A stretch of DNA of 64,000 nt from NCBI GenBank assembly GCA_023395595.1, contig JAEWYO010000070.1, positions 36,093 to 100,092 of the forward strand, read 5' to 3'. The stretch comes from Bacillota bacterium. GTDB lineage: Bacteria; Bacillota; Clostridia; Christensenellales; CAG-138. A model generated the notes under the pieces. It made no database searches. It worked only from the letters and a program-made list of their open reading frames with translations, and was not told where the DNA came from. A program made the position numbers and the translations under genes. This document shows, in pieces, positions 34,917 through 57,616 of this stretch (its first letter is position 1; every line of letters starts with the position of its first letter).

Positions 34917-34920
34917 AAAG

Positions 34921-38581: not shown

Positions 38582-40300
38582 ATGAAGAAGACCATTGCAA
38601 TGCTTCTGGTAACGATCATGGCTCTTGGCGTACTGGCAGGATGCGCGGCAACGGCGCCGGCACAACCCGCCAGCACGGAAGCCCCGGCAGAAGCGACCGC
38701 AGAAGCGACAGCCACTCCGGTTGTGGAAGATCTCAGCGAAACAGGCACACTCAAGCTCGCCTGGGTAGCCGGAATCGGCACAAACTCCATCTTTGAGTGC
38801 CCGTATACGGACATCAAGTGTCTCTACCCGAACATGCTCTTCAGCACGCTGGTCAAGGCGCAGCCCAACAGCACGTTCACGGGTGATCTCGCAACGGAAT
38901 ACACCGTTTCGGACGACGGCCTCGTCTACACCTTCAAGCTCAACCCCGCGGCGACGTTCTCGGACGGCACGGCTGTGACGGCGGACGATGTGGTGTTCTC
39001 GATCAATACCGCCATCGCGTATGAAAAATCCTGGGTCAAACAGTTCATGAAGAACATCGTCGGTGTCGCGGATGTTACCTCGGGTGCGGCAACGGAACTC
39101 GCCGGTGTGAAAGCAATCGACGCGAACACCGTTGAAATCACCGAAGGTATCGCCGACAACGCGCTGCTCTACGGCCTTGCGCTGACCTCGATTCTCCCGG
39201 CACACGCGTTTGAAGGCGTTGCGTACAATGACGTACCGACCAACGAAACCTTCTGGAGCAAACCGTATGGCTCCGGGCAATATGTGATCGATCAGGTCTC
39301 CTTCCCGAACTATTTCACGATGGTTCGCAACGAGAGCTACTTCGGTACACCCGCTGGCATCAAAAATGTTCTCTTCACCAGCTATGACGCAGGCGGCAAC
39401 GATGCCATCGTCAGCGCGGCAATCGCGGGCGACTTGGACTTTATCTTTGGCGACGCGGTTAACGACAGCAACACGATGAAGAACATCGTCGCGCAGAATG
39501 CCGACATGGTCAGCGCGGTTGTCCCGTCTTCCTATACGCGTCAGTTCCGTTTCAACCTGACGGGTTCCACGGATAACCAGTATAACTCGTTTGTGCAGGA
39601 TGTCCGCGTCCGCACCGCGTTTGAACTGCTCATGGACAAGGCGACCTGCGCCGCGTTCTATGGTGATCAGGCAAATGCCGCAATCACCATGATCAACCCG
39701 AACGACTCGCTCTTTGACACCTCGCTCACGCTCACGCCGTTCGACGTGGCCGCGGCAAAGGCACTGCTCGACGAAGCGGGCTATGACTACAGCAAGACTG
39801 TTCGTGTGCTCTACTACTATAGCGATCAGACCACGGCGGACATCATGGAAGTGCTGCGCCAGGGCTTTGAACAGGCAGGCGTGAAGTTTGAATCCTTCCT
39901 GGCTTCCGGCGATCTGGCAAGCATCATCTACACCCAGCGCAACTGGGACATGATCTACTCCGGCGGCGGCTCGGTTGCCGTTCCTGCGTATGGTTATGCG
40001 CTGCTCGTGCCGGATGGCGGCAATTGGGACTCCCTCTTTGGCAGCGTGGAAGAGCGCGCGGCGACGTATGGCGCTTCCTACAACCAGTTCCTGAGTGCGA
40101 AGGACGAAACAACGGCGAAATCCGCTGTGGTTGCTCTCCAGCAGCAGCAGGTCAAGGATAAATATGACATCGACCTCTACAACCTGAGCAAGATGGTTGC
40201 CTACAACGGCGCACACGTTGCGTTTGACACCTCGATTCTCGCAGGAGACTATCAGCAGTCCAAAGACTATAAGTTTGAAAACTGGAAGCTGATTGGTTGA
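38582..40300 (+). CDS. family-5 (Opp/Dpp-type) ABC transporter substrate-binding lipoprotein
   Basis: GAGGAGG RBS followed by ATG 38582. The signal peptide MKKTIAMLLVTIMALGVLAGC carries a lipobox. It is about 570 aa, with the size and layout of peptide/nickel/oligosaccharide binding proteins. Confidence 0.85.
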   Translation: MKKTIAMLLVTIMALGVLAGCAATAPAQPASTEAPAEATAEATATPVVEDLSETGTLKLAWVAGIGTNSIFECPYTDIKCLYPNMLFSTLVKAQPNSTFTGDLATEYTVSDDGLVYTFKLNPAATFSDGTAVTADDVVFSINTAIAYEKSWVKQFMKNIVGVADVTSGAATELAGVKAIDANTVEITEGIADNALLYGLALTSILPAHAFEGVAYNDVPTNETFWSKPYGSGQYVIDQVSFPNYFTMVRNESYFGTPAGIKNVLFTSYDAGGNDAIVSAAIAGDLDFIFGDAVNDSNTMKNIVAQNADMVSAVVPSSYTRQFRFNLTGSTDNQYNSFVQDVRVRTAFELLMDKATCAAFYGDQANAAITMINPNDSLFDTSLTLTPFDVAAAKALLDEAGYDYSKTVRVLYYYSDQTTADIMEVLRQGFEQAGVKFESFLASGDLASIIYTQRNWDMIYSGGGSVAVPAYGYALLVPDGGNWDSLFGSVEERAATYGASYNQFLSAKDETTAKSAVVALQQQQVKDKYDIDLYNLSKMVAYNGAHVAFDTSILAGDYQQSKDYKFENWKLIG

Positions 40301-40327
40301 TTTTCAAACCATAGAACACTAACATGG

Positions 40328-40366
40328 GTATGGCGGGCGCTGGTAAGTGTACCGGCCCCGCCATAC
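40328..40366 (+). other. intercistronic stem-loop after the SBP gene (possible attenuator or mRNA stabiliser)
   Basis: A 10-bp stem GTATGGCGGG/CCCGCCATAC encloses an inner 6-bp helix. No T-tract follows. Confidence 0.5.
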
Positions 40367-40393
40367 TACTGAACGAATGTTAGGAGGATGCGC

Positions 40394-41353
40394 GTGCTCA
40401 AATACTTTGGAAAACGACTGCTCTCGCTGCTGCCAAAGCTGCTGGTCATCTCCGCGATTATCTTTATCGGACTCCAGCTTTTGCCCGGTGATGCAATCAC
40501 AAGAACGGTTCCACCCGACATCTATGCGCAGATGACGACCGAACAGCTCGATGCTCTGCGCGAAAGTCTTGGGTTAAACGCGCCCCTGCCGGTTCAGTAT
40601 TTTCGCTGGCTGGGCAAGATGCTGCAAGGGGATCTTGGCTACAGCATCGTTTCCGGCAGCAATATCTCCGTCATGCTGGCGGCGCGCCTGCCTGCGACGC
40701 TGGAACTCGTTGGCCTCGGGTTGCTGGTTGCAACCGTGCTTGGTCTGATCCTCGGATACTTCTCCGCGGTCAAGCAAAACACACCGTTTGACTATCTTTG
40801 CACCACGTTTGGCATGCTCGGCGTCTCCGTGCCGGAGTTTTTTCTCGGCATGGTGGTGATCGTACTGTTTGCCATTCAGCTCAAGTGGTTCCCGACGGGC
40901 GGCCGCATGGCGCCGGGGAAAGAAGCGTTTTTTGACCGGATCGAATACCTTGTGCTGCCCGTGCTTTGCCTCGGCACCGCGTATATCGCGACCATTATGC
41001 GCTATACGAGAGGCTCCATGCTCGATGTACTCAACAAGGACTACATCACGACCGCGCGCAGCAAGGGAATCTCTGAAAACAAAGTGAATTTTCGCCACGG
41101 GTTTCGCAACGCGATTATACCTGTCATCGTCACCATCGTGTTCCGCCTGCCGATGCTGGTCGGCGGCACCGTGGTCATCGAAAGCGTGTTTAACTACCCC
41201 GGCATGGGAAACATGCTGCTTTCCGCAATCTCCGGTGGTGACATGCCTGTTGTGATGATTTCTACCTTTATTATCGCAATCGTCGTGCTGCTCTCCAGCG
41301 TATTGGCGGATTTGATTACCGCAATGCTCGATCCGCGAATCCGGCTGAACTGA
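40394..41353 (+). CDS. ABC transporter permease (DppB/OppB type)
   Basis: AGGAGG (40382-40387) followed by GTG 40394 gives (M)LKYFGKRLLSLLPKLLVIS, the canonical DppB N-terminus. ATG 40388 directly abuts the RBS. Confidence 0.85.
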   Translation: MLKYFGKRLLSLLPKLLVISAIIFIGLQLLPGDAITRTVPPDIYAQMTTEQLDALRESLGLNAPLPVQYFRWLGKMLQGDLGYSIVSGSNISVMLAARLPATLELVGLGLLVATVLGLILGYFSAVKQNTPFDYLCTTFGMLGVSVPEFFLGMVVIVLFAIQLKWFPTGGRMAPGKEAFFDRIEYLVLPVLCLGTAYIATIMRYTRGSMLDVLNKDYITTARSKGISENKVNFRHGFRNAIIPVIVTIVFRLPMLVGGTVVIESVFNYPGMGNMLLSAISGGDMPVVMISTFIIAIVVLLSSVLADLITAMLDPRIRLN

Positions 41354-41366
41354 CAGGAGGAATGGG

Positions 41367-42248
41367 ATGATGAGACAAAGCAGGCATTCAACCCGTCCGA
41401 GAGCCAGAAAGTCGAGTCTGGCAAAGCGGAATCTCTATAAGTTTTTTACGAATCGCATGGCGGTATTGGGCCTTTCAATCATACTGCTGATGATTCTTGC
41501 GGCGATTTTCGCCCCGCTGCTCTCGCCGTATTCACCGACAACGGTCGATCCGGCGAACCGGTATCTGCCGAGTTCTGCCGAGCACTGGTTGGGCACGGAT
41601 CAGCTCGGACGCGACCTGCTCACGAGGCTTTTGTACGGCGGGCGCGTCTCGATTTTCGTCGGCATGGTCGGCGCAATCTGCGCGGCGTTGGTCGGCAGCG
41701 TGCTCGGGTGCGTCGCGGGCTACTTCGGCGGCAAAGTGGATAGCGTCATCGTTTATATCTCGGAGATCTTCATGGTCTTTCCGCAGATCCTATTGGTGCT
41801 CATTCTCGTCGGCTTTGTGGGCCAGAGCCTGAAGAACCTGATCATCATCTTCACGGTCACCGGCTGGGCGAGCGTCTGCCGTATTGTGCGCAGCCGGATT
41901 CTCTCACTCAAAGAGGAGACGTTTGTGGAGAGCTGCCGCGCCAACGGCATTGGCGGGATGTCGATCATGTTTCGCCATATGCTGCCCAATACGATGGGCC
42001 CGATCGTGGTCAACATCACGCTCGCAACCGCAGGATTCCTGCTGCAAGAGTCTGCGCTTAGCTTTTTGAATATGGGCGTGCCGACCAGTATCCCGACCTG
42101 GGGTAACATCATCAACGCGGCGCGAAACATGAACGTCATTCAGAATTATCCGTTGATGTGGATTGCGCCCGGCGTGTGCATCTGCCTGTTTGTCCTTGGC
42201 GTCAACTTCTTTGGCGACGGGCTCCGGGACGTTCTGGACCCGACATAA
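41367..42248 (+). CDS. ABC transporter permease (DppC/OppC type)
   Basis: 293 aa, with an AGGAGG RBS. HWLGTDQLGRDLLTRLLYGGRVS is the typical OppC N-terminal motif. Confidence 0.85.
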   Translation: MMRQSRHSTRPRARKSSLAKRNLYKFFTNRMAVLGLSIILLMILAAIFAPLLSPYSPTTVDPANRYLPSSAEHWLGTDQLGRDLLTRLLYGGRVSIFVGMVGAICAALVGSVLGCVAGYFGGKVDSVIVYISEIFMVFPQILLVLILVGFVGQSLKNLIIIFTVTGWASVCRIVRSRILSLKEETFVESCRANGIGGMSIMFRHMLPNTMGPIVVNITLATAGFLLQESALSFLNMGVPTSIPTWGNIINAARNMNVIQNYPLMWIAPGVCICLFVLGVNFFGDGLRDVLDPT

Positions 42249-42266
42249 AAGGAGGGGGTGCGTAAG

Positions 42267-43277
42267 ATGGAACAAGATATGATTCTGCGGGTCAAGCACC
42301 TGCAAGTGAAGATTAAAGTAGGCCGGCGCATGGTTCACGCGGTCAACGACGTGAGCTTTGATCTCAAGCGCGGCAAAACGCTTGGCATCGTCGGCGAGAG
42401 TGGATGCGGCAAGAGCGTGACCGCACGCGCGATTATGCAGCTTTTGCCGAAGGCCGGCAATATTACAAAGGGCGCAATCACGTATTTCGGCAACGAAAAA
42501 CCGGTGGAGATCGCCTCCTGCAAGCGAAACAGCAAAAAGATTCGCAACATTCGCGGCGCGGATATTTCGATGATCTTCCAAGACCCGATGTCTGCGCTCA
42601 ACCCGGTCTACTCCATCGGCAGGCAGATTTCCGAGAATCTGCTGCAACACGAGCGTCTTTCCAAGAAAGAAGCGCGCGCGCGCGTGATCGAGATGCTCAA
42701 AGACCTTGGCATCCCGATTCCGGAGCAAAGATATGACGAATATCCCCATCAGTTCTCCGGTGGCATGCGTCAGCGCGTCATGATCGGCATTGCGATGATC
42801 TGCAACCCGGGCATTTTGATTGCGGACGAACCGACCACGGCGCTGGATGTCACCATTCAGGCGCAGATTCTGGAGCTGATGAAACGGGTACAGCAGCAGC
42901 ATGGTACATCCGTGATCCTCATTACGCACAACATGGGCATCGTGGCGGAAGCGTGCGACGACGTTGCGGTGATGTACATGGGGCGCGTGGTGGAATATGG
43001 CACGCTGGAGCAGGTGTTCAACCATCCGCTGCATCCGTATACCTGCGCGCTGATGCGCTCCGTTCCCGTGCTGGGCATCGGCAAGGACAAAAAGCTGGAG
43101 TCCATCAAGGGTTCCACGCCGGATGCTTCCATTGAGTTTACGCACTGCGAGTTTGCAGAGCGGTGCGATCATTGCACCCAGCGCTGCCTCGAAGGATTGC
43201 CGCAGGATCGCATCTTGCCGGATGGGCACCGCGTGCGCTGCTTCCGCTATGCCGAGGAGGGTGAGGCAAATGATTAA
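42267..43277 (+). CDS. ABC transporter ATP-binding protein (DppD/OppD type)
   Basis: Walker A is GESGCGKS and the signature is FSGGMRQR. The C-terminal oligopeptide-type extension carries Cys residues. AAGGAGGGGG RBS followed by ATG 42267. Confidence 0.9.
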   Translation: MEQDMILRVKHLQVKIKVGRRMVHAVNDVSFDLKRGKTLGIVGESGCGKSVTARAIMQLLPKAGNITKGAITYFGNEKPVEIASCKRNSKKIRNIRGADISMIFQDPMSALNPVYSIGRQISENLLQHERLSKKEARARVIEMLKDLGIPIPEQRYDEYPHQFSGGMRQRVMIGIAMICNPGILIADEPTTALDVTIQAQILELMKRVQQQHGTSVILITHNMGIVAEACDDVAVMYMGRVVEYGTLEQVFNHPLHPYTCALMRSVPVLGIGKDKKLESIKGSTPDASIEFTHCEFAERCDHCTQRCLEGLPQDRILPDGHRVRCFRYAEEGEAND

Positions 43278-44322
43278 TCAAACCAATGCAAACCCGCTCT
43301 TGAGCCTGCAGCACCTGCAAAAGTATTATCCCGTCACCGCCGGAACGTTCAAGAAGGTTGTGGGCTACGTTAAGGCGGTGGACGATGTTTCGCTCAACGT
43401 ATTCAAGGGCGAAACACTCGGCATCGTCGGCGAGTCCGGCTGCGGGAAGACGACGCTCGGCAAGTGCGTGGTGCGCCTGCATCAACCAACCGGCGGAAAG
43501 ATTTTGCTGCGTCAGGAAGACGGCGAGATGAAAGATTTGCTCGCGCTGAGCAAGGCGGAGAGCTTCTCGGCAAGAAAGCGCATCCAGATGGTGTTTCAAG
43601 ACCCCTATGCGTCGCTCAACCCCAGCATCAATATCTACAACGCGTTTGACGAGCCGATGCGCATCCACGGCCTTGGTAACAAGGCGCAGCGTCGGGAAAT
43701 TATCGCCAATATGCTTGAGACGGTGAATCTTCAGCCCGACTATATGTATCGCTTCCCGCACGAGTTCTCCGGCGGGCAGCGGCAGAGAATCTGCATCGCA
43801 AAAGCGCTTGCTATGGGACCTGAGATCATCGTTTGCGACGAACCGGTCTCCGCGCTGGATGTTTCGATTCAGGCGCAGATCATGAACCTCATGCGCGAAT
43901 TGCAAGCGCAATACAACCTGACGTACCTCTTCATTGCGCATGATCTTTCGGTGGTGCAGTATATGTCCGACCGGATCGCAGTGATGTATCTGGGCAAGGT
44001 GGTCGAGCTTGCCTCGGCGGACGAGCTTTGCGCGTGCAAGGCGCATCCATACAGCGAAGCGCTGCTCTCCGCGGTGCCGATCCCCGTGATTGGCGCGAAG
44101 AAGAACCGCATCATCCTCAAAGGCGACGTGCCGTCTCCGGTCAACCCGCCGTCGGGTTGCCGGTTTCATCCGCGCTGCCCGAAGGCAACGCCGCTGTGCG
44201 CAGAGAAGGAACCGCAGCTCCTGCCGATGCAGGGGAAAGCGGATCACCTCGTTGCGTGCCACTATGCGGGGTGTGACTGCGAAACGGAGATTCTGTGCAA
44301 CTGTGCGGATGAAAACGAATAA
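43270..44322 (+). CDS. ABC transporter ATP-binding protein (DppF/OppF type)
   Basis: Re-called start at ATG 43270 (MINQTNANPLLSLQHLQKYY), overlapping the upstream stop. Walker A is GESGCGKT and the signature is FSGGQRQR. Confidence 0.9.
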   Translation: MINQTNANPLLSLQHLQKYYPVTAGTFKKVVGYVKAVDDVSLNVFKGETLGIVGESGCGKTTLGKCVVRLHQPTGGKILLRQEDGEMKDLLALSKAESFSARKRIQMVFQDPYASLNPSINIYNAFDEPMRIHGLGNKAQRREIIANMLETVNLQPDYMYRFPHEFSGGQRQRICIAKALAMGPEIIVCDEPVSALDVSIQAQIMNLMRELQAQYNLTYLFIAHDLSVVQYMSDRIAVMYLGKVVELASADELCACKAHPYSEALLSAVPIPVIGAKKNRIILKGDVPSPVNPPSGCRFHPRCPKATPLCAEKEPQLLPMQGKADHLVACHYAGCDCETEILCNCADENE

Positions 44323-44365
44323 GCGTAGCACATACTGTGATTTCACGAGAAAAAGGAATAGGACG

Positions 44366-47113
44366 ATGGAATGGATCACTGAGGGGTTCGAAGGCTTTTC
44401 CACGGGAACCATGGAAAACGGCGGACAGAACCTCTATGTTTCAAAAAAAGGGATTTTGCAGCGTATCTTTCACTATGACGTGAACGCGGACGGGCACGCC
44501 GATCTGCTCTTTGCCTGTAGCCAGAGCATGTATGAGCGCCCGCCGCTCTATGTTTTTGAGCAACTGCCGCAGCAGAACGAACACCGCGAGCTGCCCTCCG
44601 GCGGCACGTATGACGGCGTGTTTGCAGATCTTTCCGGCAGCGGGTACGACGATCTCATCGTCGCTTGCCAGCATGACGGAACACACTCCGACGTGACCGC
44701 GTTTGTCTATTTTGGCGGCCCGGAAGGGCTCACAGAGCGCTATCGCATGGAGCTGCCCGCGCCGTCGAGCGTCGGCGTTGCGGTCGGGGACTTCAATGGC
44801 AACGGCAAAAAGGACATCGCGTTTCTTTCCAACGAGAAGCTGCGCGTGTTTGAGCAGGAGGAGCGCGGCTTTTGTCCGGCGAGTTTTACGGACTATCCAC
44901 TCAACGCAAAGGTGATCGTTGCCGCCGATCTCGACGGCGATGGTTATTGCGATCTGTATTTTAAGGACACGGAAGGCAAGACCGGCATCCTCTTTGGCAG
45001 CGCAAGCGGCTTTGAGGCATCCGGCATTGTCTGGATCAATCAGGACGCCGTACTCGTCAAAGAAGGCGAAGGAAGCACGACGGCGGGACAGATTCACGCC
45101 TATGTCCAGTGGCGTCCATGCGTCGTCACCATCGATCAAAAACAATATCTCTTCAGCCGTGAGAAAGATCAGGCCGTGTTTTATACCTGCGGACGAGACC
45201 GCAAAATACAGCGCGCCTTTGCGTTGGACTGCCCGGGCGCGGCGGCGGTTGTGTCCACCGATCTCACCAGAAACGGGTTTGACGATCTGGCGTTCGCGGT
45301 GTTTCAAGATCGCGATCAGGAACACGATTGTAAGGTCTACCTCGGCGGCAAAGAAGGCTTTTCGGAATCGCGCGTGACGCGGATTCCCGTCAAGGGCGCA
45401 ATCAATGTGACGGTTGCGGATTTGGGCACGCCGACGCTGATCATCTGCCGCAGCGGAGAGCGGATTGAGCGCGAAACGCTCTCGCCCGCGTTCCGTTTTG
45501 CGCCGGATGGAACGGCGCAGCAGGTGTTTTCGATTCCCGCCGGGGACTGTACGCGGATTCTCGCGGGCAGGCCGGGCGGCAGCGCAACGCACGACACCGT
45601 TGTTTCGCTCAACCATGAGCTCAACCGCGCGCAGGGCGGTGAGCAGGTGTTTGTCTATCTTGGCGGCGTGGACGGCTATTTGCCGGATCGCCGGCTGGAA
45701 TTCCCCGCGCATTCCGCAGTCGATGGTGCCATGTGCGATTTTTTCGACACGGGTCGGGTCGATGTGCTGGTTTGCAATTGCTTTGAGGACGCGCTGCATC
45801 TTGACGACGGATGCTATCTCTATCCGCAAAGTGAAACCGGCTTTTCCGGGCAGAAGAAGGTCGTGTTTCCGACGCTGCACTGCTCCGGCTCTGCGATTGG
45901 AGACTTTCGCAAATCCGGCTTTCTGGATATCGCGTTTGGTGGTTTTTGCAACCGCGAAATCCTGATTTTCCACGGTAGCGAGACGGGATATTCCGCCGAG
46001 AACTTCTCCCGCGTGGTATTGGGGCCGGACGACGGCACCTATCACCCGGACAAGTATGGCGAAGGGCAGGACGTTTACATGAGCGTCCCGCCGGATGAGC
46101 GCGCGGTGACCACGGAGTTTGGCCAGGTGCGCTGGATGCTCTCGGCAGACTTCAACTGCGACGGCTGGCCGGATCTGTTTATCTCGGAGATCACTGGCCC
46201 GCGCTGCTTCATCCTCTGGGGCGGGCCGGAAGGCTTTTCCACCAAGCGGATGACAACGCTGCTCACCGATGGGGTCGCATCTGCAAACGTGGCAGATCTC
46301 AACGGCAACGGTTGGCCGGATCTGATCCTAGCAAGCCACCAGTCCACGAAGAAGAATGTAAAGTATGAATCGTATGTGACCGTCTATTGGGGTGGGCCGG
46401 ACGGCTATCAGGAGAACCGCAGAATGCAACTGCCCGTCTCCTGCGCAAACGCCGTCACCGTTGGCGACTACAACGGAAACGGCAGCCTCGACATCTACGC
46501 GACTTCCTACAACAACGGCAGAACGAGGGATTTGCTCTCATACCTCTACAAAGGCGACCACGGTAACTATAGCATCAGGAATGTGCAGTATCTATTCAAT
46601 CACTCCGGCTCCGGCTGCGTCTCCGGCGATTTCAACGGGGACGGATACACCGACCTTGCCGTCGCCTGCCACAAGGAATACGGCAACCACTGCTCGCATT
46701 CCTTCATCTACTGGGGTGGACCAGACGGGCTATCGGAAGATCGAAAGACGATCTTGCCGACGGTTGGCCCGCACGGGATGTCCTCGGTCGATCCGGGCAA
46801 TATCCTCGATCGCGGAGACCGGGAGCGCTACACGTCCGAAGTCAAGCACCTACCGGAAGGCAGTGTGCTGTGCGCGATTGCCTGGGAAGGGGTTTGCACC
46901 TCGACCAGCTGGGTGGAACTTTCGGTACGCGCGGCGGACAGCGAAGAAGCGATTCTTGCAAGCGACTGGCAGCGCGTGGAGAACGGAGAAGACCTGACGC
47001 AGCGCAACCTGGGCGGCGTCGTGCAATATCAAATCGCGCTGTGCGCAAAATGCGCCTGCGGAACGCCGCGGATCGAGCGGGTTCGAGTCACGTATGAACG
47101 GAGGAATATTTAA
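44366..47113 (+). CDS. 915-aa cytoplasmic FG-GAP/VCBS-repeat (beta-propeller) protein of unknown function
   Basis: Re-called start at ATG 44366 (MEWITEGFEGF); there is no signal peptide. About 10-14 repeats carry Ca-binding-like DxNGDGxxD loops, for example DFNGNGKKDIAF, DLDGDGYCDLYF, DLNGNGWPDLIL, DYNGNGSLDIYA and DFNGDGYTDLAV. Recurring GGPEG(F/L)/GGPDG(Y/L) turns are also present. Confidence 0.7.
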   Translation: MEWITEGFEGFSTGTMENGGQNLYVSKKGILQRIFHYDVNADGHADLLFACSQSMYERPPLYVFEQLPQQNEHRELPSGGTYDGVFADLSGSGYDDLIVACQHDGTHSDVTAFVYFGGPEGLTERYRMELPAPSSVGVAVGDFNGNGKKDIAFLSNEKLRVFEQEERGFCPASFTDYPLNAKVIVAADLDGDGYCDLYFKDTEGKTGILFGSASGFEASGIVWINQDAVLVKEGEGSTTAGQIHAYVQWRPCVVTIDQKQYLFSREKDQAVFYTCGRDRKIQRAFALDCPGAAAVVSTDLTRNGFDDLAFAVFQDRDQEHDCKVYLGGKEGFSESRVTRIPVKGAINVTVADLGTPTLIICRSGERIERETLSPAFRFAPDGTAQQVFSIPAGDCTRILAGRPGGSATHDTVVSLNHELNRAQGGEQVFVYLGGVDGYLPDRRLEFPAHSAVDGAMCDFFDTGRVDVLVCNCFEDALHLDDGCYLYPQSETGFSGQKKVVFPTLHCSGSAIGDFRKSGFLDIAFGGFCNREILIFHGSETGYSAENFSRVVLGPDDGTYHPDKYGEGQDVYMSVPPDERAVTTEFGQVRWMLSADFNCDGWPDLFISEITGPRCFILWGGPEGFSTKRMTTLLTDGVASANVADLNGNGWPDLILASHQSTKKNVKYESYVTVYWGGPDGYQENRRMQLPVSCANAVTVGDYNGNGSLDIYATSYNNGRTRDLLSYLYKGDHGNYSIRNVQYLFNHSGSGCVSGDFNGDGYTDLAVACHKEYGNHCSHSFIYWGGPDGLSEDRKTILPTVGPHGMSSVDPGNILDRGDRERYTSEVKHLPEGSVLCAIAWEGVCTSTSWVELSVRAADSEEAILASDWQRVENGEDLTQRNLGGVVQYQIALCAKCACGTPRIERVRVTYERRNI

Positions 47114-47114
47114 T

Positions 47115-47993: not shown

Positions 47994-48017
47994 CCAGACC
48001 CGCTTGAAAGGATAGCT

Positions 48018-48485
48018 ATGATTCTTGACACACTCGATCACGCGGTACTGTACGCGCCGCTTTCCAACGGTCTGAAGGAAGCGTTTCTCGCGCTGGAATC
48101 CGTTCAGACGCAGCCGTATGTCACCGGCAGGCTTGACGTCGTTCCCGAAAGCCTGTTTCTGTTGAAAAACGCCTATAGCCCGAAGCCCTATGGCGCGGAA
48201 AGCCTGCTGGAAGCGCATCAGGAATACATCGACGTGATGTACATGGTGGAAGGTGAAGAGCTGATCTACGTCAAACCCACCGCGCGGCTCCGGCATGTGG
48301 AGAAACCGTATGATCCGGCGATCGATGCGCTGCTGACCCCGCCGGAAGGCGACGAGACCGCGGTGCATCTCACACAAGGACAGTTTCTCGTGCTGTTTCC
48401 GCAGGACGCGCATTGTCCGGCAAACCGCATCAGCGGATGCGACGCGGTCAAGAAAATCATTTGCAAAGTACGAGTGGCGTGGTAA
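48018..48485 (+). CDS. YhcH/YjgK/YiaL (DUF386) family protein
   Basis: 155 aa. EAHQEYIDVMYMVEGEELIYV and VLFPQDAHCP are typical of this cupin-like family, which is commonly linked to sialic-acid loci. Confidence 0.75.
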   Translation: MILDTLDHAVLYAPLSNGLKEAFLALESVQTQPYVTGRLDVVPESLFLLKNAYSPKPYGAESLLEAHQEYIDVMYMVEGEELIYVKPTARLRHVEKPYDPAIDALLTPPEGDETAVHLTQGQFLVLFPQDAHCPANRISGCDAVKKIICKVRVAW

Positions 48486-48528
48486 AAGACACCGCGCAAT
48501 CGCGACTGACACGAGAGAGGGATTATTG

Positions 48529-49461
48529 ATGATATCCTGCACAGAGTTTATTCCGGCCTATAGCGCGCTCTTCACGTTTCTGGAAAACAGCTATGGCGTA
48601 CAAGAGGTGCATCGCTTCTGGGAAGACCTGTTCGACCCGAAGAAAAACGGGCCCACCCACTTGCTGGAGGAAGAACTCAGCAAGAACGGCATCACCGGCT
48701 GCTGGAACTACTGGACGCACACGCTCAACGAAGAGGCGGCGGATTTTGACCTGTATCTCGACGAGGAGAACGGCTGGTATCTTTGCCGGATGCGCCATTG
48801 CCCGTCCAAAGGGCGGCTGCTTGCGATACCACATATCACGCCATATCACGACTATTGCAGCCATTGCGACCTCTATCGCCGGACAGTGGAGCAATACGGA
48901 CTCGAATACGTATACAACTTTACGGGGTGCAGCGAAGCTTCCTGCGAACTGCTGATCTATGACCCCAAGAAGTTTCAGGGCACGCTCAAGGTTTCGCCAA
49001 AGACGCGCGTGATGAAACGCAATGCGAGCGACAACCGCTATTTTCACAAGGACTTTCATCTTTCGTTAAACGCTGGCGTAGAGTATCTGGGCACGCGTTT
49101 TGGCACAGAGGCGGTTGAGCGTTTTTTGCAAGAGTATGCGTTTGCCTACTATGCGCCTTTGATCAAACGGATCAAGAGCGATGGTATCGCGCCGCTGGAA
49201 GAATACCTGATCTCCACTTATGCGGCGGAAGAAGCGGTAGACGAGATCACCGTCATTCGCGAGGGCGAAGGTTTGCGCGCGCTCGTACGCGAATGCCCCG
49301 CTGTGCGGCATATCCGCACAAGCGGTAGAGACGTATCCCGCTGGTATCGCCTTACGACTCAAACCGTCATGGGAACGATTGCGTTGGCGTCCGGATTTCA
49401 ATTTACGATGCTGGCGTATGATGAACAAACTGGTCGCGCGGAATACACTTTTTCAAAATAG
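48529..49461 (+). CDS. hypothetical protein with an internally duplicated domain of about 150 aa; N-terminal copy Cys-rich
   Basis: GAGAGAGGGA RBS followed by ATG 48529. The N-half carries CRMRHCPSKG, YCSHCDLY and GCSEASCELL. The C-half keeps only RECPAVRHI. I recognise no family with confidence. Confidence 0.5.
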   Translation: MISCTEFIPAYSALFTFLENSYGVQEVHRFWEDLFDPKKNGPTHLLEEELSKNGITGCWNYWTHTLNEEAADFDLYLDEENGWYLCRMRHCPSKGRLLAIPHITPYHDYCSHCDLYRRTVEQYGLEYVYNFTGCSEASCELLIYDPKKFQGTLKVSPKTRVMKRNASDNRYFHKDFHLSLNAGVEYLGTRFGTEAVERFLQEYAFAYYAPLIKRIKSDGIAPLEEYLISTYAAEEAVDEITVIREGEGLRALVRECPAVRHIRTSGRDVSRWYRLTTQTVMGTIALASGFQFTMLAYDEQTGRAEYTFSK

Positions 49462-49509
49462 GGAAAGACAATCTGCGGGCAGCAACGCCCGCAAATGAGG
49501 GCGGATACA

Positions 49510-50973
49510 ATGGCGTATTTTCTGGCGATTGATTTGGGCACAACCGGCTGCCGTAGCATGGTGTTTGACGATGCGCTGCGCCTTTTTGGCTCGGACTATA
49601 TCGAATACGGCCTGATCACGCCGAAACCAAACTGGTATGAACAGGACGCCAACCTTTGGTGGAACATCGCCTGCCAAACGATGAAAGCCGCGATCGCCGC
49701 ATCCGGCATATCCGGCAACGAGATCGCCTCGCTGAGCGTGAGTTCACAGGGCATCAGCATCGTTCCCGTGGATCGCGCTTGGCAGCCACTTCGAAATGCG
49801 CTGAGCTGGATGGACACCCGTGCGGAGGAAGAGGAACAGCGTCTGATCGCCGAGTTAGGTCAGGAGGAGACGTTTTCACGCACCGGAAAGCGCATCGCCG
49901 CAACCTACACGCTGCCAAAGCTGCTTTGGTTGCAGCAAAACGAACCGGATGTGTTTGCAAAAGCGGATTATTTTCTGATGCCACTGGATTTTTTAACGGC
50001 GAAGTTGACAGGACGCGCTGTAACGGACCCTTCTATGGCATCCGGCACGCTGTTTTACGATATGCGAGCAGGTTGTTGGCACAGACCGACGCTGGCGCGA
50101 TATGGAATCAACGAAAGCAAACTCGCGCGTATTTTGCCAAGCGGGAGCGTCGCGGGAACGGTCTTGCCGGAGGTTGCCGCGCTATTGGGGCTATTGAGCG
50201 ATTGCCTTGTCTGCGTCGGCGCGCAGGATCAGCGCTGCGCTTCGCTCGGCGCGGGACTTTCGCCCGGGGTGGTGACGGTTTCATTGGGCACGGCGGCGGC
50301 GGTCTGCAAGCTCTGTGCGCGCTTTGCGCCGGAGGACGGCATGCATGTCGGCTGGTCGCCGTACGTGTTCGCCGGAGAATGGGTGAGCGAGAGCGTGGCA
50401 GGTGCGGCGGGCGCAAGCTTGCGCTGGCTGCGAGATAGCATCTATCAAGAAATGACCTATGACACGATCAATTGCGAGGCAGAGATTGCGCGTGAAAGAG
50501 GCAGCGAAGTTGCGTTTTTACCGTATCTTTGCGGGCCGGGGTTTCCGCGCTTTGATCCTGCATCGACAGGGTGTTTCCACAAAATAACGATGGCGACACA
50601 GCGCGGAGACCTTGCACTTGCTGTCATGCGCGGAGTCGTTTTCCAGATCCGTGAAATATTAGAATCGATGGACGCAAATGCCGAGACGAAACGATTGGTA
50701 CTCTTCGGCGGCGGAGTGAAGAGCACGCTTTGGCGGCAATTATTTGCGGACGGTCTTAACATGCCGGTCTACATTCCGAGCGAAGCAGAAACCGCAGGAA
50801 TCGGAGCTGCCATTCTGGCTGGATTGGGTGCTGGTCGGTTCCAAAAGGAAAATCTACCTCAGATTCGCTTTTCAGGCGTGAGCATGCCGTCGGAAAAAGC
50901 CAAGGAAGAAAACGAACACTACATGAAGTTTCGCGCACTGGAGCAAGTTCTGCAATCCGGCTACGATTCATAA
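49510..50973 (+). CDS. FGGY-family carbohydrate kinase (xylulokinase-like)
   Basis: GAGGG RBS followed by ATG 49510 (MAYFLAIDLGTTGCRS). The C-terminal motif is FGGGVKSTLWRQLFADGLNMPV. Confidence 0.85.
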   Translation: MAYFLAIDLGTTGCRSMVFDDALRLFGSDYIEYGLITPKPNWYEQDANLWWNIACQTMKAAIAASGISGNEIASLSVSSQGISIVPVDRAWQPLRNALSWMDTRAEEEEQRLIAELGQEETFSRTGKRIAATYTLPKLLWLQQNEPDVFAKADYFLMPLDFLTAKLTGRAVTDPSMASGTLFYDMRAGCWHRPTLARYGINESKLARILPSGSVAGTVLPEVAALLGLLSDCLVCVGAQDQRCASLGAGLSPGVVTVSLGTAAAVCKLCARFAPEDGMHVGWSPYVFAGEWVSESVAGAAGASLRWLRDSIYQEMTYDTINCEAEIARERGSEVAFLPYLCGPGFPRFDPASTGCFHKITMATQRGDLALAVMRGVVFQIREILESMDANAETKRLVLFGGGVKSTLWRQLFADGLNMPVYIPSEAETAGIGAAILAGLGAGRFQKENLPQIRFSGVSMPSEKAKEENEHYMKFRALEQVLQSGYDS

Positions 50974-51031
50974 AGCCATAGACAGATTCAATCTGCGCAA
51001 GAGTAGATCAAACAGCATATGAGGTAGGCAC

Positions 51032-52195
51032 ATGAACGCCATCATCCACGCAAATCTGGTTCTGGAAGACGAAATTCTGTTCGACGGAGCAATCCTGTTT
51101 GACAACGGGAGCATCGTCTCATTTGGCGCGACGGAAACGCTGGAGATTCCCGGCGGCATCGAGAAGATGGATGCCTGCGGGAAATACGTCGGCCCGGGGT
51201 TTGTAGACATCCACTGCCACGGCGGCAACGGATTCCTGTTTGACAACGACCCGGAGCAGGCGGCGGCGCATTTTCTCTCGCACGGGGAAACCACGGTGCT
51301 TGCGACGCTCTATTACAACCTTTCCTATGATGAAATGCTGGCGGCAATCCGGCGCGTGCAAGAGGCGATGCAAAAACCGGGAGCAGCGCGCGCCATCGGC
51401 GGCATCTATATGGAAGGCCCCTATATGAACCCGAAATACGGCGCGTCGCCGGAGAAGAACCGGTGGCGCGGGCCGATCGATTTCGCCCAAGCGGATGCGT
51501 TAATACAGTCAGCGGGAGAGGACGTATTGGTCTGGGCGATTGCACCGGAGAGGGATGGCGTGTCTTCGTTTGTGGCCGCCGCGAAAGCCGCAAATAAAAG
51601 CGTGCGGTTTGCTGTTGGTCACAGCGAGGCTACGCCGGCACAGATCGCGGCGCTCAAGCAATACGACTTGATCATTCAAACACACTGCACCAACGCAACG
51701 GGTGCACCTTGCGCGGTCGGCGGTACACGTGCCTGCGGGCCGGATGAAGCGTGCTTTTATGACCCGGATATATATGCGGAGGTCATCTGTGATTCCTGCG
51801 GGATTCATGTGCATCCCGATATGCTGCGCTTGATTCACCGGATCAAAGGCGATGACCGGGTGGTGTTAATTACCGATAGTTTCGTCTCCAGCGAACAACC
51901 ACCGGAGAACCTGAAGCACATTACGGATCTACATTTTGACGCAAGCGGCGGGCTCTGCGGCAGTAAACTCACGCTGGACGTCGCCTGCCGCAACATGATG
52001 CGGCATACGGGAATCGGCATTTGTCAGGCGTTCCGGTTTGCGAGCCTGAACCCCGCGCGTGCGGTTGGGCTGGACGCAGACGTTGGCAGCATCGTCATCG
52101 GCAAAAAAGCCAATCTTGTGCTTGTGGACGACGACATGCGCCTGCACGGCGTATGGATGGAAGGGAAATGGATGGGCGCACGGCAGACAGAGTAA
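51032..52195 (+). CDS. nagA: N-acetylglucosamine-6-phosphate deacetylase-like amidohydrolase
   Basis: 387 aa. PGFVDIHCHGG, YMEGPYMNP, VGHSEAT and the QTHCTNA motifs correspond to the NagA metal and substrate motifs. Confidence 0.75.
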   Translation: MNAIIHANLVLEDEILFDGAILFDNGSIVSFGATETLEIPGGIEKMDACGKYVGPGFVDIHCHGGNGFLFDNDPEQAAAHFLSHGETTVLATLYYNLSYDEMLAAIRRVQEAMQKPGAARAIGGIYMEGPYMNPKYGASPEKNRWRGPIDFAQADALIQSAGEDVLVWAIAPERDGVSSFVAAAKAANKSVRFAVGHSEATPAQIAALKQYDLIIQTHCTNATGAPCAVGGTRACGPDEACFYDPDIYAEVICDSCGIHVHPDMLRLIHRIKGDDRVVLITDSFVSSEQPPENLKHITDLHFDASGGLCGSKLTLDVACRNMMRHTGIGICQAFRFASLNPARAVGLDADVGSIVIGKKANLVLVDDDMRLHGVWMEGKWMGARQTE

Positions 52196-52229
52196 AACCC
52201 GTGCGTTTGGAAAGGGATAAAGGAAGATC

Positions 52230-53567
52230 ATGTTAAAAGCTGGCGTGGCGCAGATTGACATCTCGCCCGAAAAAGGTTTGGAACTGGCGGGGTATCCGCA
52301 TTATCCGCGCAACAACACAGGTGTGCACGATCCGTTGTTTGCCGCGTGCCTGTATGTATCCGATGGCAGCACAGAACTTGCCATGGTGACGCTGGATCTG
52401 CTGTTTTTCTCCAAGCGGCACGTTGCGGAGGTGCGCCGGCGTTTACAAGCGGTCTGCGGGATTCCGGGCGATCACCTGATGATCTCGTGCTCGCATACGC
52501 ATTCCGGCCCGTGGGCGGCGGGCAGGCTGGACGTTGAGAGCCTTGAGGCGGGAAAGGAACAGCCGCACGCTTATGTGGAATCGCTCATTGAACGCATCAC
52601 CCGTATCGTGGCGCAGGCAAAGAGCACTTGTTTTGACGCAACGCTTGCCTATGGCTGCGAACTCTGCGGCGCAGAGCAGGGCGTTGGCGGGAACCGAACC
52701 CTGCGCGGCGGCCCGCATGACCCGCTGGTCAGCGTGATCGCCGTCAAGGACAAGAGCGGCTGTGCACGCGGCGTTTTCGCGAACTATACGCTGCACCCGA
52801 CGTTCATCCACGAATGGAGCGATGTGGTCACGGCGGACTATCCGGCTTATGTCCGGCAGGAGATTGCAAAGCAAGCGCCCGATGCCGTGTTTGGCTTTGC
52901 GCAGGGCGCGTCCGGCAATCAATCCAGCCGGTATTACCGCACGGGAGAGTCGTTTGACGAGGCAGAGCGTGTTGGACGGTTGCTGGGCAGCGCCGCCATG
53001 CGGGTGGTCACGCAGGGTGCGTATCAAAGCGAGATCCGCCTGTCTGCGGCAACGAGCACCGTCGAACCGATCATTCGTGCCTTTGGTGAGGAAGCGGAGC
53101 TGGAGCAGCGCGTGGCAAGCGATCGCGCGGTCTATGAAGACCTTTATGCGCGTTATGGCACATCCGCCAACCGGGACGAATACTATCTTTGGCAAAACGC
53201 GAATCTGAAGTTGCTGGGTTCCGAGGATCAGCTAGGCTATGTGCGGATGCAAAACCGCGGCGTGTCGATTGAACTGCTCCGAGACGAGCGTCCGGCCGAG
53301 ATTCAGGTGTTCGTGCTGGGTTCCTGCTGCATCATCGGGCTGCCGGGCGAAGCGTTTGTGGAGTATGCGCTCTATCTAAAGGCGATGGCGGGCTATCCGA
53401 TGGTGGTGGTCAATACGCTGGCAAACGGTTGCCTGCCGGGCTATCTCATCACGCCGCAGGGCATGAGCGAAGGCGGATACGAGGCGGACACCTCTATGCT
53501 GGATGTCGCCTTCGGACGGGTGTTGATCGATTGCGCGCTGGATACCATCGCGAACTGCGCCAAATAG
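52230..53567 (+). CDS. neutral/alkaline-ceramidase-like N-terminal-domain hydrolase (cytoplasmic)
   Basis: 445 aa, with no signal peptide. MLKAGVAQIDISPEKGLELAGYP...GVHDPLFAACLYV and SCSHTHSGP resemble the bacterial ceramidase-like family. Confidence 0.55.
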   Translation: MLKAGVAQIDISPEKGLELAGYPHYPRNNTGVHDPLFAACLYVSDGSTELAMVTLDLLFFSKRHVAEVRRRLQAVCGIPGDHLMISCSHTHSGPWAAGRLDVESLEAGKEQPHAYVESLIERITRIVAQAKSTCFDATLAYGCELCGAEQGVGGNRTLRGGPHDPLVSVIAVKDKSGCARGVFANYTLHPTFIHEWSDVVTADYPAYVRQEIAKQAPDAVFGFAQGASGNQSSRYYRTGESFDEAERVGRLLGSAAMRVVTQGAYQSEIRLSAATSTVEPIIRAFGEEAELEQRVASDRAVYEDLYARYGTSANRDEYYLWQNANLKLLGSEDQLGYVRMQNRGVSIELLRDERPAEIQVFVLGSCCIIGLPGEAFVEYALYLKAMAGYPMVVVNTLANGCLPGYLITPQGMSEGGYEADTSMLDVAFGRVLIDCALDTIANCAK

Positions 53568-53649
53568 ACAAAGTTCAGCGGAATGTCACGCTTGCGGGGG
53601 AAATATTTCCGCCGGGCGATGAAATATTGGAAAAAGAAGAGAAGAGAAA

Positions 53650-54618
53650 GTGAGAATCAGTACCATGGGAACGTTCCATCAAAGACCCGCCGCGTGGGTG
53701 CCGTATCGCAACGAAGCGGAGCTCGATCGCGTCCGCGCGATCACGCGCGAAGATATAGCAGCGATGAACCATGTTCATCCCAGAAACCCGAATGTGCATT
53801 TGGACGTCATCCGCAACGAAGAGTTTGAGATGATCATGCTCACCGATATGTTCAACCGCATTCTGGACTCGGATCGTTATGATAAAAAGGTCGTGCTGGT
53901 GATGCCGAATCCCTGCACCACCTATCGCAAGCTTGCCTACATGCTCAACAAATGTAAGGTCAACTGCCGCAACGTGAAGTTTTATATGATGGACGAATGG
54001 GCAGATGCGGACGGCAACATTGCGCCGCTGAGCTATGAGTCCGGCTTTGGCAACGCATTTATGCGCTTTTGCATCTCTCAGCTCGATCCCTCGCTGGGTT
54101 TTCAGATGGAGAACTTCGTCTATTTCTCCAATGAGACGGTGGATAGCTATTCCAAGCGGCTAGAGGACGACGGTGAAGCGGACGCGATCTATTCCGGCCC
54201 GGGTTGGCCGGGGCACCTTGCGTTCATCGATCCCGTGGAAGACTGGTATTGCGACACGCTGGAAGAATACATGCGTCAACCCGCGAAGGTTGCCAAGCTG
54301 CATCCCATGACGATGCTGCAAAACTCGCTCCACGGCACGTTTGGCTACAGCGGGGACGTGGCGAAGGTTCCCGCGATGGGCGCGATGATGGGCCCGCGCG
54401 ACGCAATGCAGGCAAAGAACGTCTTTGACCTGCACGGCATCACGACGGACGGCACAAAGGTCACTTGGCAGAGGATGATCTCGCGGCTCTGTATCTTTGC
54501 CGAACCGTGCCAGGAGCTGCCCGCGTCTATTTTGCAACTGCGCGACAAGCCGACCTTCATCTATATGTCAGAAAACTCCGCCTCCACGATCAAAGCGGAC
54601 GATTATTTCCAGTATTGA
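53650..54618 (+). CDS. glucosamine-6-phosphate deaminase/isomerase (NagB-superfamily)-like protein with an N-terminal extension
   Basis: 322 aa. VVLVMPNPCTTYRKLA ... FYMMDEWAD ... GPGWPGHLAFIDP resembles the NagB/6-phosphogluconolactonase fold. The start is uncertain (GTG 53650 or ATG 53665). Confidence 0.6.
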   Translation: MRISTMGTFHQRPAAWVPYRNEAELDRVRAITREDIAAMNHVHPRNPNVHLDVIRNEEFEMIMLTDMFNRILDSDRYDKKVVLVMPNPCTTYRKLAYMLNKCKVNCRNVKFYMMDEWADADGNIAPLSYESGFGNAFMRFCISQLDPSLGFQMENFVYFSNETVDSYSKRLEDDGEADAIYSGPGWPGHLAFIDPVEDWYCDTLEEYMRQPAKVAKLHPMTMLQNSLHGTFGYSGDVAKVPAMGAMMGPRDAMQAKNVFDLHGITTDGTKVTWQRMISRLCIFAEPCQELPASILQLRDKPTFIYMSENSASTIKADDYFQY

Positions 54619-54641
54619 TCCTTTCACACAAGCACACACAG

Positions 54642-54671
54642 GGTGGCCGGAAAAAACCCGGCCGCCTTTTT
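54642..54671 (+). terminator. rho-independent terminator ending the 14-gene operon
   Basis: A 9-bp GC-rich stem GGTGGCCGG/CCGGCCGCC has a 7-nt loop and is followed by TTTTT. Confidence 0.75.
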
Positions 54672-54729
54672 GAATACTTGCGTTTGTGTATTTCACTGGA
54701 ACGACGGGATCAAACAGACGAGAGGGAGC

Positions 54730-57504: not shown

Positions 57505-57616
57505 AACAATGCCTCCAAAAAACGATATGCTTTTCTCGCTGGAAAACAATATTTTCTAGATACAGTATAAAAACAATCTAATAAGAAATCAACAGACAAT
57601 AATATAGTAAATAATA

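Follow-up and report, generated by a model that had tools for sequence, protein, structure and literature searches.

We analyzed a 64-kb (64,000-nucleotide) stretch of contig JAEWYO010000070.1 from a Bacillota bacterium of the Christensenellales, hereafter the window, and found a 13-gene operon that joins an Opp/Dpp-type ABC importer to enzymes resembling those of the sialic acid (nan) and N-acetylglucosamine (nag) catabolic pathways. The operon is a real, widely conserved, and uncharacterized gene cluster of gut Clostridia, and our search of the published literature found no description of it. Our favored reading, held with about even confidence, is that the cluster directs a two-tier catabolic pathway, independent of NanE and NanK, for an acidic N-acylated amino sugar of the sialic acid (2-keto-3-deoxy ulosonic acid) type. 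An earlier note made from the sequence alone had cautiously described a sialic acid-like pathway that handles a different or modified substrate by a noncanonical route, and our analysis supports that description overall.

Listing open reading frames (ORFs), inspecting start codons and ribosome-binding sites (RBSs), and scanning for domains placed 13 co-directional genes on the plus strand between positions 38582 and 54618. The earlier note gave the number as 14, though its own list also held 13 genes; each of its domain calls was matched by our Pfam and NCBIfam scans. The intergenic gaps are, in order, 87, 13, 18, -8 (an overlap), 43, 1, 24, 43, 33, 58, 34, and 82 to 97 nt, and the third becomes 9 nt if the first ATPase gene starts at the GTG at position 42258. 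The largest gap can reach 97 nt, depending on the start of the last gene, in place of the 93 nt given in the earlier note. An intrinsic terminator closes the operon at 54640-54672 on the plus strand, where an 11-bp stem (hairpin 54640-54668) is followed by UUUUU. The predicted hairpin was confirmed by its folding energy of -21.2 kcal/mol (z = -4.69), since none of 200 shuffled sequences folded as well. A scan for consensus promoters and terminators gave no more matches than shuffled sequence and missed this terminator. For comparison with relatives, we searched approximately 80 related loci (up to 21 kb, given L numbers) with the window proteins by tblastn, clustered the neighboring ORFs, and annotated representatives. 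Counts of co-occurrence refer to the 45 loci with full flanks. Enzyme identities were judged by the curated NCBIfam equivalog cut-offs. Residues were compared with E. coli reference sequences, and HMMER alignments to PDB chains served as an independent comparison.

The first five genes encode the importer. A family-5 solute-binding protein (SBP; 38582-40300, PF00496, 184 bits) is a predicted lipoprotein with a signal peptide ending in LAGC, and its ATG start is preceded by the RBS AGGAGG. It is followed by an OppB/DppB-type permease (40388-41353, PF00528 and PF19300), an OppC/DppC-type permease (41367-42248, PF00528 and OppC_N), an OppD-type ATPase (42267-43277, ABC_tran and oligo_HPY), and an OppF-type ATPase with the same two domains (43270-44322), whose start overlaps the preceding gene by 8 nt. 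A family-5 SBP, two BPD_transp_1 permeases (one with OppC_N), and two oligo_HPY ATPases assign this system to the Opp/Dpp (PepT) family. The nearest solved structures to the SBP are peptide-binding, NikA, and unnamed SBPs, and among NCBIfam models it best matches those of oligopeptide and nickel SBPs. Importers with a family-5 SBP form an established class of sialic acid transporters (ST3/SatABCD), known chiefly from Actinobacteria and Pasteurellaceae (PMC8461474). The SatABCD system of Haemophilus ducreyi and Actinobacteria likewise pairs a family-5 SBP with an Opp/Dpp-like ABC system for a sugar acid, not a peptide. It differs in that SatC is a fused permease-ATPase, whereas our locus has two permeases and two separate ATPases, and in that the SBP here has no detectable close similarity to structures of SatA, a protein marked by a His-Ser carboxylate pair. 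A SatA-type identity for this SBP was considered and found no support in the PDB search. The proposed coupling of importer and enzymes was borne out: SBP5/OppBCDF genes precede the gene for the DHDPS-family lyase described below in independent lineages, at only 39-70% identity, and SBP5 accompanies this lyase in 6/6 occurrences.

Three genes follow the importer. The first encodes a cytoplasmic FG-GAP protein of 915 aa (44366-47113, FG-GAP_3, 130 bits). Its AlphaFold2 (AF2) model, with a predicted local distance difference test (pLDDT) score of 91.5, has two beta-propellers and a C-terminal beta-sandwich. A PDB sequence search gave no match, and Foldseek returned only generic multi-propeller scaffolds (DDB1 and CPSF160, TM ~0.2) from which no function can be derived. 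The gene is present in six loci including the window, one of which is L087, and always stands alongside Opp genes. It is an accessory gene, and its product possibly acts on an imported conjugate.

The next gene encodes a class I pyruvate lyase of the DHDPS/NAL superfamily (47115-47993, PF00701, 99 bits), for which we predict a NanA-like role. It scores below the cut-offs of both nanA models (42.5 against 382 for TIGR00683 and 49.2 against 281 for PRK04147) and of the dapA model TIGR00674 (99.3 against 206.15), and its second-best specific model is the archaeal 2-keto-3-deoxygluconate (KDG) aldolase. The Schiff-base Lys168 and Tyr140 are invariant in 41 orthologues. The clade carries the motifs GSMG (vs GSTG/GTTG), YDL (vs YNI/YNV), and DGMFACTP, and the position of Arg138 in E. 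coli DapA is occupied by Val, Ile, or Thr in 39 of the 41. We rejected a true DapA identity on the score below the equivalog cut-off, GSMG in place of the GTTGE motif, and the missing equivalent of Arg138. A protein 60% identical to the lyase, with the same three motifs, is encoded in a Lachnospiraceae cluster of Opp, DHDPS, NanE, and ROK kinase genes. The lyase gene is followed by that of a DUF386/YhcH-family protein (48018-48485, PF04074, 102 bits), a putative ring-opening anomerase with a NanQ-like role. Its best specific match is the NanQ equivalog NF040884 (63.8, cut-off 160), and it occurs with the lyase in 12/14 cases. YhcH/NanQ is an anomerase that supplies open-chain N-acetylneuraminic acid (Neu5Ac) to NanA (PMC10017367). 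The nan likeness noted earlier was upheld in that DHDPS and DUF386 are paired here as NanA and NanQ are.

The last four genes of the operon make up a nag-like block. It begins with an FGGY-family, XylB-like sugar kinase (49495-50973, FGGY_N/C) that reaches 344.7 bits against the XylB model TIGR01312 (cut-off 380.25). In related loci, this gene is almost always directly upstream of the gene for the NagA-like protein. The kinase of the operon is FGGY rather than ROK, as the earlier note had stated, and the only ROK protein is a helix-turn-helix (HTH) regulator. The NagA-like N-acetyl-amino-sugar deacetylase (51032-52195, Amidohydro_1) scores 178.6 against TIGR00221 (cut-off 225.65) and is a NagA-like enzyme of uncertain specificity. 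Its metal-binding and catalytic residues (HxH, Glu, His, His, and Asp) are invariant. Arg233 is also invariant and aligns with the phosphate-binding Arg227 of E. coli NagA, and the conserved residue suggests that the substrate is probably phosphorylated.

A putative second N-deacylase (52230-53567) consists only of the catalytic domain of a ceramidase-fold Zn amidase (PF04734, Ceramidase_alk, 35.8 bits). Its family profile matches the Pseudomonas aeruginosa neutral ceramidase 2ZWS with an E value of 7e-22. The invariant residues H89/H91, H189, E374, and Y405 align with HTHSGP, His204, Glu411, and Tyr448 of 2ZWS, which we take to be the ceramidase Zn ligands. Homology over the catalytic domain and these conserved ligands place the protein in the neutral ceramidase superfamily, with the catalytic-domain fold and the Zn-binding His/His/Glu/Tyr set of 2ZWS and human 4WGK. 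Unlike those enzymes, it has 445 aa, is cytoplasmic, and lacks the C-terminal domain. Because its gene is embedded in an amino-sugar operon, ceramide is very unlikely to be its substrate. In L087, a creatininase-family amidase stands in place of the ceramidase-like gene. The operon ends with a highly divergent NagB-superfamily deaminase/isomerase (53650-54618), which has no Pfam match and scores 35.1 bits against TIGR00502 (cut-off 236.9). Its family counts 753 homologues with 78% mean column identity, and those in related loci are 63-71% identical to the window protein, among the most conserved genes. The Asp of MDEW, His189, and Asp194 are invariant. The protein belongs to the NagB/AgaI fold family, retains their catalytic Asp (in MDEY/W) and GHxAF His, and carries an acidic residue where NagB has Glu148, but it is about 60 residues longer. 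The phosphate loop is altered, with PTGGTP changed to PNPxxTY by deletion of TGG, Arg172 replaced by Leu, and Asp141 replaced by Pro. Every enzyme of the operon thus falls below the cut-off for NanA, DapA, NanQ, XylB, NagA, or NagB, which fits a noncanonical route or substrate. Catalytic residues of the DHDPS, NagA-like, ceramidase-like, and NagB-like families are conserved despite these low scores.

Between the DUF386 and kinase genes lies a gene for a Cys/His-rich protein that we call UNK311 (48529-49461), which has no match in any family library, including the V4R model of Pfam and all of NCBIfam. It has 496 homologues of about 310 aa with 67% mean column identity. Their 67 invariant columns include 7 Cys, 3 His, and the N-terminus MISCTEFIP. 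The embedded proteins without an assigned function are real families. The AF2 model (pLDDT 93) shows two similar alpha/beta domains that appear V4R/Bet3-like. Foldseek returned only weak matches, to the V4R phenol-sensor domains of PoxR and MopR, TRAPP Bet3, and H-NOX (best E 0.02-0.04, probability 0.98-1.0, target-normalized TM 0.40-0.55). This weak likeness suggests a fold class for UNK311 and not a function. In L087 (11343-12259), the protein is split into two adjacent genes, with the C-terminal half first and the N-terminal half second. Tandem paralogues in two to three copies were seen for UNK311 in L013, L039, L047, L052, L058, L080, and L081, for the NagB-like protein in L045, L065, L070, and L073, and for the lyase in L076 and L081. 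Such duplications suggest diversification towards several related substrates.

NanE was absent. Neither the E. coli protein nor a clostridial NanE from L085 gave a tblastn match in the window, and every related UNK311-bearing locus likewise lacked it, in agreement with the earlier observation that no NanE was recognizable. An AGE-type epimerase (NanE-II) had no match in the window either. The sole ROK protein of the window scored only 52-60 bits against NanK models with cut-offs of 283-450, so no ROK-type NanK is encoded there.

We compared the operon with known sialic acid systems. E. coli nanATEK-yhcH together with nagAB likewise places a DHDPS-family lyase beside YhcH/DUF386, continues with a kinase, an N-deacetylase, and a deaminase, and has a dedicated importer and a sugar-responsive repressor. 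Our operon differs in lacking NanE, in having an FGGY rather than a ROK kinase, and in its lyase, DUF386, NagA-like, and NagB-like proteins, all below equivalog cut-offs. The ceramidase-fold amidase, UNK311, the FG-GAP protein, and three proteins encoded farther downstream (SIS, TIM-like, and UPF0047, described below) are additional. The Lachnospiraceae cluster mentioned above (L085/L086) is uncharacterized and canonical nan in content. It comprises a family-5 SBP, OppBCDF, DHDPS, NanE (PF04131), a 317-aa ROK kinase, a GFO_IDH_MocA protein, and SDRs. Its lyase belongs to the same clade, and its Opp-family permeases and ATPases are 48-54% identical to ours. Unlike our operon, it has NanE and the ROK kinase; DUF386 and the NagA-like, ceramidase-like, and NagB-like proteins are missing, and FGGY gave no match there. 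The nanLET system of Bacteroides (NanL, AGE-type NanE-II, and RokA) is likewise an alternative sialic acid route that avoids NanE. The window differs in having neither an AGE gene nor a ROK kinase, and the downstream enzymes are not the same.

UNK311 relatives were found in 476 species-representative genomes. The 80 loci listed are all from Clostridia, mostly metagenome-assembled genomes (MAGs) from the gut. The closest relatives, at 81% identity, are in MAGs of Christensenellaceae; Oscillospiraceae/Faecousia, Acutalibacteraceae, and Lachnospiraceae are further carriers, and the sources are humans, ruminants, horses, and poultry. Linkage of the genes is kept across Clostridia at 40-70% identity. 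The recurrent set runs DeoR and SIS on one strand and, in the opposite direction, TIM-like, UPF0047, DHDPS, DUF386, FGGY, NagA-like, ceramidase-like, NagB-like, UNK311, SDR, and AKR. The FGGY/NagA-like/ceramidase-like/NagB-like block is syntenic in at least 35 of the approximately 80 loci. DHDPS and the complete four-gene block occur together in 11 loci, DHDPS without the block in 7, and the block without DHDPS in 6. An RbsB-like CUT2 monosaccharide SBP was seen with DHDPS in 0/9 occurrences and with the lower block in 4/9. Genes that track DHDPS are SDR (17/19), AKR (11/13), BNR (3/3), GDSL (5/6), and FG-GAP (3/3), and SIS, TIM-like, and UPF0047 genes occur with both parts. The layout is that of an upper nan-like module, for import and cleavage of an acid, feeding a lower nag-like module, which can also stand alone with its own monosaccharide importer.

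Accessory genes of sialic acid type appear in related loci. BNR/Asp-box propellers are present in six (within the operon in L019), GDSL esterases in nine, AGE-family epimerases adjoining DHDPS/UNK311 in three, and GH29 fucosidases in three. The version in L087, 70% related, has an inserted glycerate kinase gene; UxaC, glycerate kinase, and creatininase were found in one locus each. A search of the window for SDR, AKR, Amidohydro_2, BNR, GDSL, AGE, and CUT2 SBP genes found none. Three candidate assignments were set aside. The BNR protein resembles a GH33 sialidase only at the level of its Asp-boxes (E ~0.002) and is at best suggestive of one. A "FucI-like" gene near the stand-alone lower module has marginal Pfam support, at 29.0 against 29.3 bits and with no match for the copy in L034, and was not used. 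A hexuronate reading based on UxaC, SDR, and DHDPS, with UxaC in a single locus, was kept only as part of one of the alternatives below.

The system extends past the terminator. The earlier note had ended the unit there; the functional unit continues, because the families encoded up to about 59.1 kb recur beside these genes elsewhere. In L019, L042, and L070, for example, DeoR, SIS, TIM-like, and UPF0047 genes lie in a single operon together with DHDPS and the FGGY block. In the window, these are a DeoR-family, AgaR-like regulator (56041-56814, minus strand; HTH_DeoR and DeoRC; AgaR 193, cut-off 260), a KpsF/GutQ-like sugar-phosphate isomerase with a single SIS domain and no CBS domains (56857-57549, minus strand; PF01380; TIGR00393 108, cut-off 203.7), an archaeal-type triose-phosphate-isomerase-like (TIM-like) protein (57732-58442, plus strand; PRK04302 180.5 bits, above the cut-off of 132), and a UPF0047/YjbQ-family protein (58469-59104, plus strand; PF01894, 91.7 bits). 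The SIS gene accompanies the lower module in 9/10 occurrences, and DeoR accompanies it in 12/14. TIM-like genes are present in 15 related loci, often as TIM, UPF0047, and DHDPS in one operon, and UPF0047 genes in 11.

From the gene content, its conserved linkage and active sites, and the absence of NanE, we infer a substrate, an order of steps, and several enzyme roles. The lipoprotein SBP and OppBCDF-type ABC system would take up the acid, either free or as a small glycoside or conjugate, as the conserved SBP5-DHDPS linkage suggests. The double-propeller FG-GAP protein, found only in Opp-type versions of the cluster, may release the monomer, a role we propose weakly. DUF386 would open the ring, and the lyase, through its Schiff-base Lys168, would split the presumed acid into pyruvate and an N-acyl amino sugar. 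The FGGY kinase would then phosphorylate this sugar, although the steps of the lower module could follow a different order. The NagA-like enzyme would deacetylate the phosphate ester, the ceramidase-fold Zn amidase would remove a second or alternative amide, and the divergent NagB homologue would deaminate and isomerize the product to a keto sugar. At the junction of the two modules, UNK311 could serve as an isomerase or epimerase or in ligand handling, and the downstream-encoded SIS, TIM-like, and UPF0047 proteins might convert the product to central intermediates.

Several points weigh against this scheme. We are guessing at the roles of UNK311 and of the FG-GAP, SIS, TIM-like, and UPF0047 proteins. 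All enzymes score below their equivalog cut-offs, so the scores establish no substrate. The SBP is only 28% identical to that of the NanE/ROK-type cluster, and the SatA entries 5ZA4, 5Z99, and 5YYB are not among its PDB matches at E<=1e-6. Another 56%-identical DHDPS protein adjoins UxaC, SDR, DUF386, and UNK311 in a hexuronate-like context, so the lyase clade may act on several 2-keto-3-deoxy acids. FGGY kinases are not known to act on aldohexosamines. A second amidase is constant across loci (ceramidase-like here, creatininase-like in L087), yet Neu5Ac has one amide. The absence of NanE and NanK, moreover, refers to the 64-kb window, and either may be encoded elsewhere in the genome.

One alternative is ordinary catabolism of Neu5Ac or N-glycolylneuraminic acid (Neu5Gc). 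The lyase would then yield N-acetylmannosamine (ManNAc), the NagA-like and NagB-like proteins would be a divergent N-acetylglucosamine-6-phosphate deacetylase and glucosamine-6-phosphate deaminase, NanK and NanE or AGE would be encoded elsewhere, and the extra genes would be passengers. The 60%-identical lyase of the canonical Opp-NanE-ROK cluster, the AGE epimerases adjoining DHDPS/UNK311 in three loci, and the standing of DUF386 as a typical nan passenger all agree with this. We nevertheless judge it distinctly unlikely, as NanE is missing from the window and the roughly 80 related loci while the lower block remains syntenic in at least 35, the NagB homologue has diverged extremely (35 bits against a cut-off of 237) and has an altered phosphate loop, and the supposed passengers rank with the best-conserved genes (the NagB-like protein at 63-71% identity). 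The presence of two amidases suits a different substrate, a doubly N-acylated microbial nonulosonic acid (pseudaminic or legionaminic acid) or its 2,4-diacetamido-2,4,6-trideoxyhexose, from which the two enzymes would remove both N-acyl groups. The absent 6-hydroxyl would explain why a ketose-type FGGY kinase replaces NanK and why NanE is unneeded. The constancy of two amidases, the second subject to nonorthologous replacement, is what this proposal predicts, and it accommodates the FGGY kinase and a NagB homologue without the canonical phosphate loop and Arg172. Tandem paralogues of UNK311, the NagB-like protein, and the lyase would suit a chemically diverse substrate class, and related loci also carry GDSL esterases and SDR/AKR genes. 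Against it, no class II aldolase for a ketose-1-phosphate is present at the locus, the surroundings of relatives (AGE, NanE/ROK) suggest products of ManNAc type, and the NagA-like enzyme retains the Arg used for the 6-phosphate in NagA. We consider such a substrate unlikely.

The peptide-type importer, whose SBP has peptide-type and nickel-type (NikA) proteins as its nearest neighbors, agrees with another kind of substrate, an acidic amino sugar with an amide on its carboxyl group, such as an N-acetylhexosaminuronic acid-amino acid or -peptide from bacterial polysaccharide or archaeal pseudomurein, or a 3-deoxy-D-manno-octulosonic acid (Kdo)-glucosamine fragment of the lipopolysaccharide inner core. 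As part of this reading, the DHDPS protein would be a KDG-type aldolase late in a nonphosphorylative route, and the archaeal KDG aldolase is indeed its second-best specific model. Relatives combine DHDPS/DUF386/UNK311 with UxaC and SDR, with a KduD/gluconate-5-dehydrogenase-like SDR and AKR, or with glycerate kinase, and the altered NagB loop would make sense if it met a carboxylate in place of a phosphate. Christensenellaceae, the family of the closest MAGs, are known to co-occur with Methanobrevibacter. UxaC, glycerate kinase, and creatininase are each confined to one locus, however, the window has no SDR or AKR, and the adjacency of DUF386 and DHDPS together with the NanE/ROK, AGE, and BNR contexts favors a sialic-type acid; we consider this class of substrate improbable. 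A far smaller chance attaches to sugar-amino-acid conjugates (Amadori/Heyns or opine-like compounds), with the NagB homologue as a deglycase and the amidases acting on Asn/Gln-type amides, as in fructose-asparagine utilization. The fra/frl pathways resemble the kinase, amidase, and deaminase logic seen here, and the SBP falls in the family-5 branch nearest peptide- and nickel-binding proteins. Known deglycases have the SIS fold and their kinases are of PfkB type, and conjugates would leave unexplained the DHDPS-DUF386 pair, the NanE/ROK cluster of the closest lyase, and the CUT2 importers of the lower module. It is extremely improbable that the array is not one system at all, with a peptide Opp importer placed by chance upstream of unrelated sugar genes. 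The best NCBIfam matches of the SBP and promoter-like hexamers inside the array could be taken that way, but several families repeat the order of Opp genes, then DHDPS, at 39-70% identity (SBP5 with DHDPS in 6/6), gaps do not exceed 97 nt before a single strong terminator, and internal promoter and terminator matches are within shuffle expectation.

Two proteins are probable regulators of the system. The earlier note had placed a ROK regulator divergently upstream of the operon, and we confirmed an HTH-bearing, NagC/Mlc-like protein there (36781-38025, minus strand; PF00480, 122.8 bits, and a weak MarR HTH). It scores 158 bits against the NagC equivalog (cut-off 650), and its HTH and NagC/Mlc likeness mark it as a regulator. 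Its start is probably the GTG at 38025; the longer annotated ORF overlaps the sequence boxes described next. A search for direct and inverted repeats, with inspection of the sequence, revealed a putative promoter/operator region at 38133-38322 with four CGAAAACA-type boxes between the ROK and SBP genes. Three are direct copies 64-65 nt apart, and one is inverted, 22 nt from the first. These boxes are candidate operator sites. The DeoR protein is the probable regulator of the lower module. A hairpin with a 10-bp stem and a T-tract on the minus strand (55994-56017) lies between the convergent MFS and DeoR genes and is likely a terminator for DeoR, possibly bidirectional.

The MFS-type transporter gene that was reported after the operon terminator is present, with its own RBS and a weak PF07690 match (54730-56019, plus strand; 31.8 bits, E 9e-8). 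It also follows the NagB-like gene in L001, and the copies in L006 and L007 are 70% identical. Opposite the SBP, ATPase, and FG-GAP genes, the minus strand carries long ORFs of 572, 441, 424, and 534 aa (38498-46045). We regard these as artefacts of G+C-rich coding sequence and not as genes, because their counterparts elsewhere cluster only as shadows of the sense genes. Farther upstream, the window holds a second, different FGGY-family kinase (4026-5525, FGGY_N 275 bits) 45 kb from the operon. A minus-strand block at 10636-15602, with genes for GT4 and GT2/GT4 glycosyltransferases and a UDP-GlcNAc 2-epimerase (PF02350, 391 bits), probably serves to make a cell-wall polymer that contains ManNAc, and a DDE transposase gene (16184-17488) adjoins it. 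A locus of plant-arabinan type follows at 17729-22563, with a GH51-like alpha-L-arabinofuranosidase, a LacI regulator, and a GH127 beta-L-arabinofuranosidase, and CUT1 permeases are encoded at 24389-26283. Directly upstream of the ROK gene (30385-36522) are genes for VTC-domain, DUF4956, NAGPA phosphodiester glycosidase-like, and FMN_bind/4Fe-4S membrane proteins, for which we found no link to the operon. On the far side, an isolated 126-aa ORF (59424-59804) matches only positions 261-384 of 453 of a GH1 model and is probably a gene fragment or pseudogene. At its end (60251-64000), the window encodes an AraC-type response regulator and a Cache/HAMP histidine kinase and contains the beginning of a family-1 SBP gene; this is a typical sugar-sensing two-component unit of a neighboring, separate uptake locus.

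The cluster is a variant of the nan/nag pathway type, conserved in several modular forms across hundreds of gut Clostridia, most of them uncultured. It contains at least two highly conserved families without a Pfam model (UNK311 and the NagB-like protein) and a ceramidase fold repurposed in a sugar pathway. It is possible, though doubtful, that it represents the first catabolic route to be described for an acidic microbial amino sugar with two amide bonds, using three new enzyme types. The substrate may then be a di-N-acyl nonulosonic acid (of pseudaminic or legionaminic type) drawn from surface glycans of bacteria or archaea, or a fragment in which N-acetylhexosaminuronic acid is joined to peptide, as in Methanobrevibacter pseudomurein. 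If true, the new enzymes would be a sugar N-deacylase of ceramidase fold, a NagB homologue that works without the canonical 6-phosphate site, and UNK311, a tandem V4R-like metalloprotein serving as a catalyst. The cluster is a well-supported lead to new enzymology and a nutrient niche. Solving the substrate would assign a function to the UNK311 and NagB-like families and define a NanE/NanK-independent use of sialic acid-like sugars. It would also reveal the glycan, whether of host, dietary, or microbial origin, on which these abundant, poorly understood gut bacteria feed.

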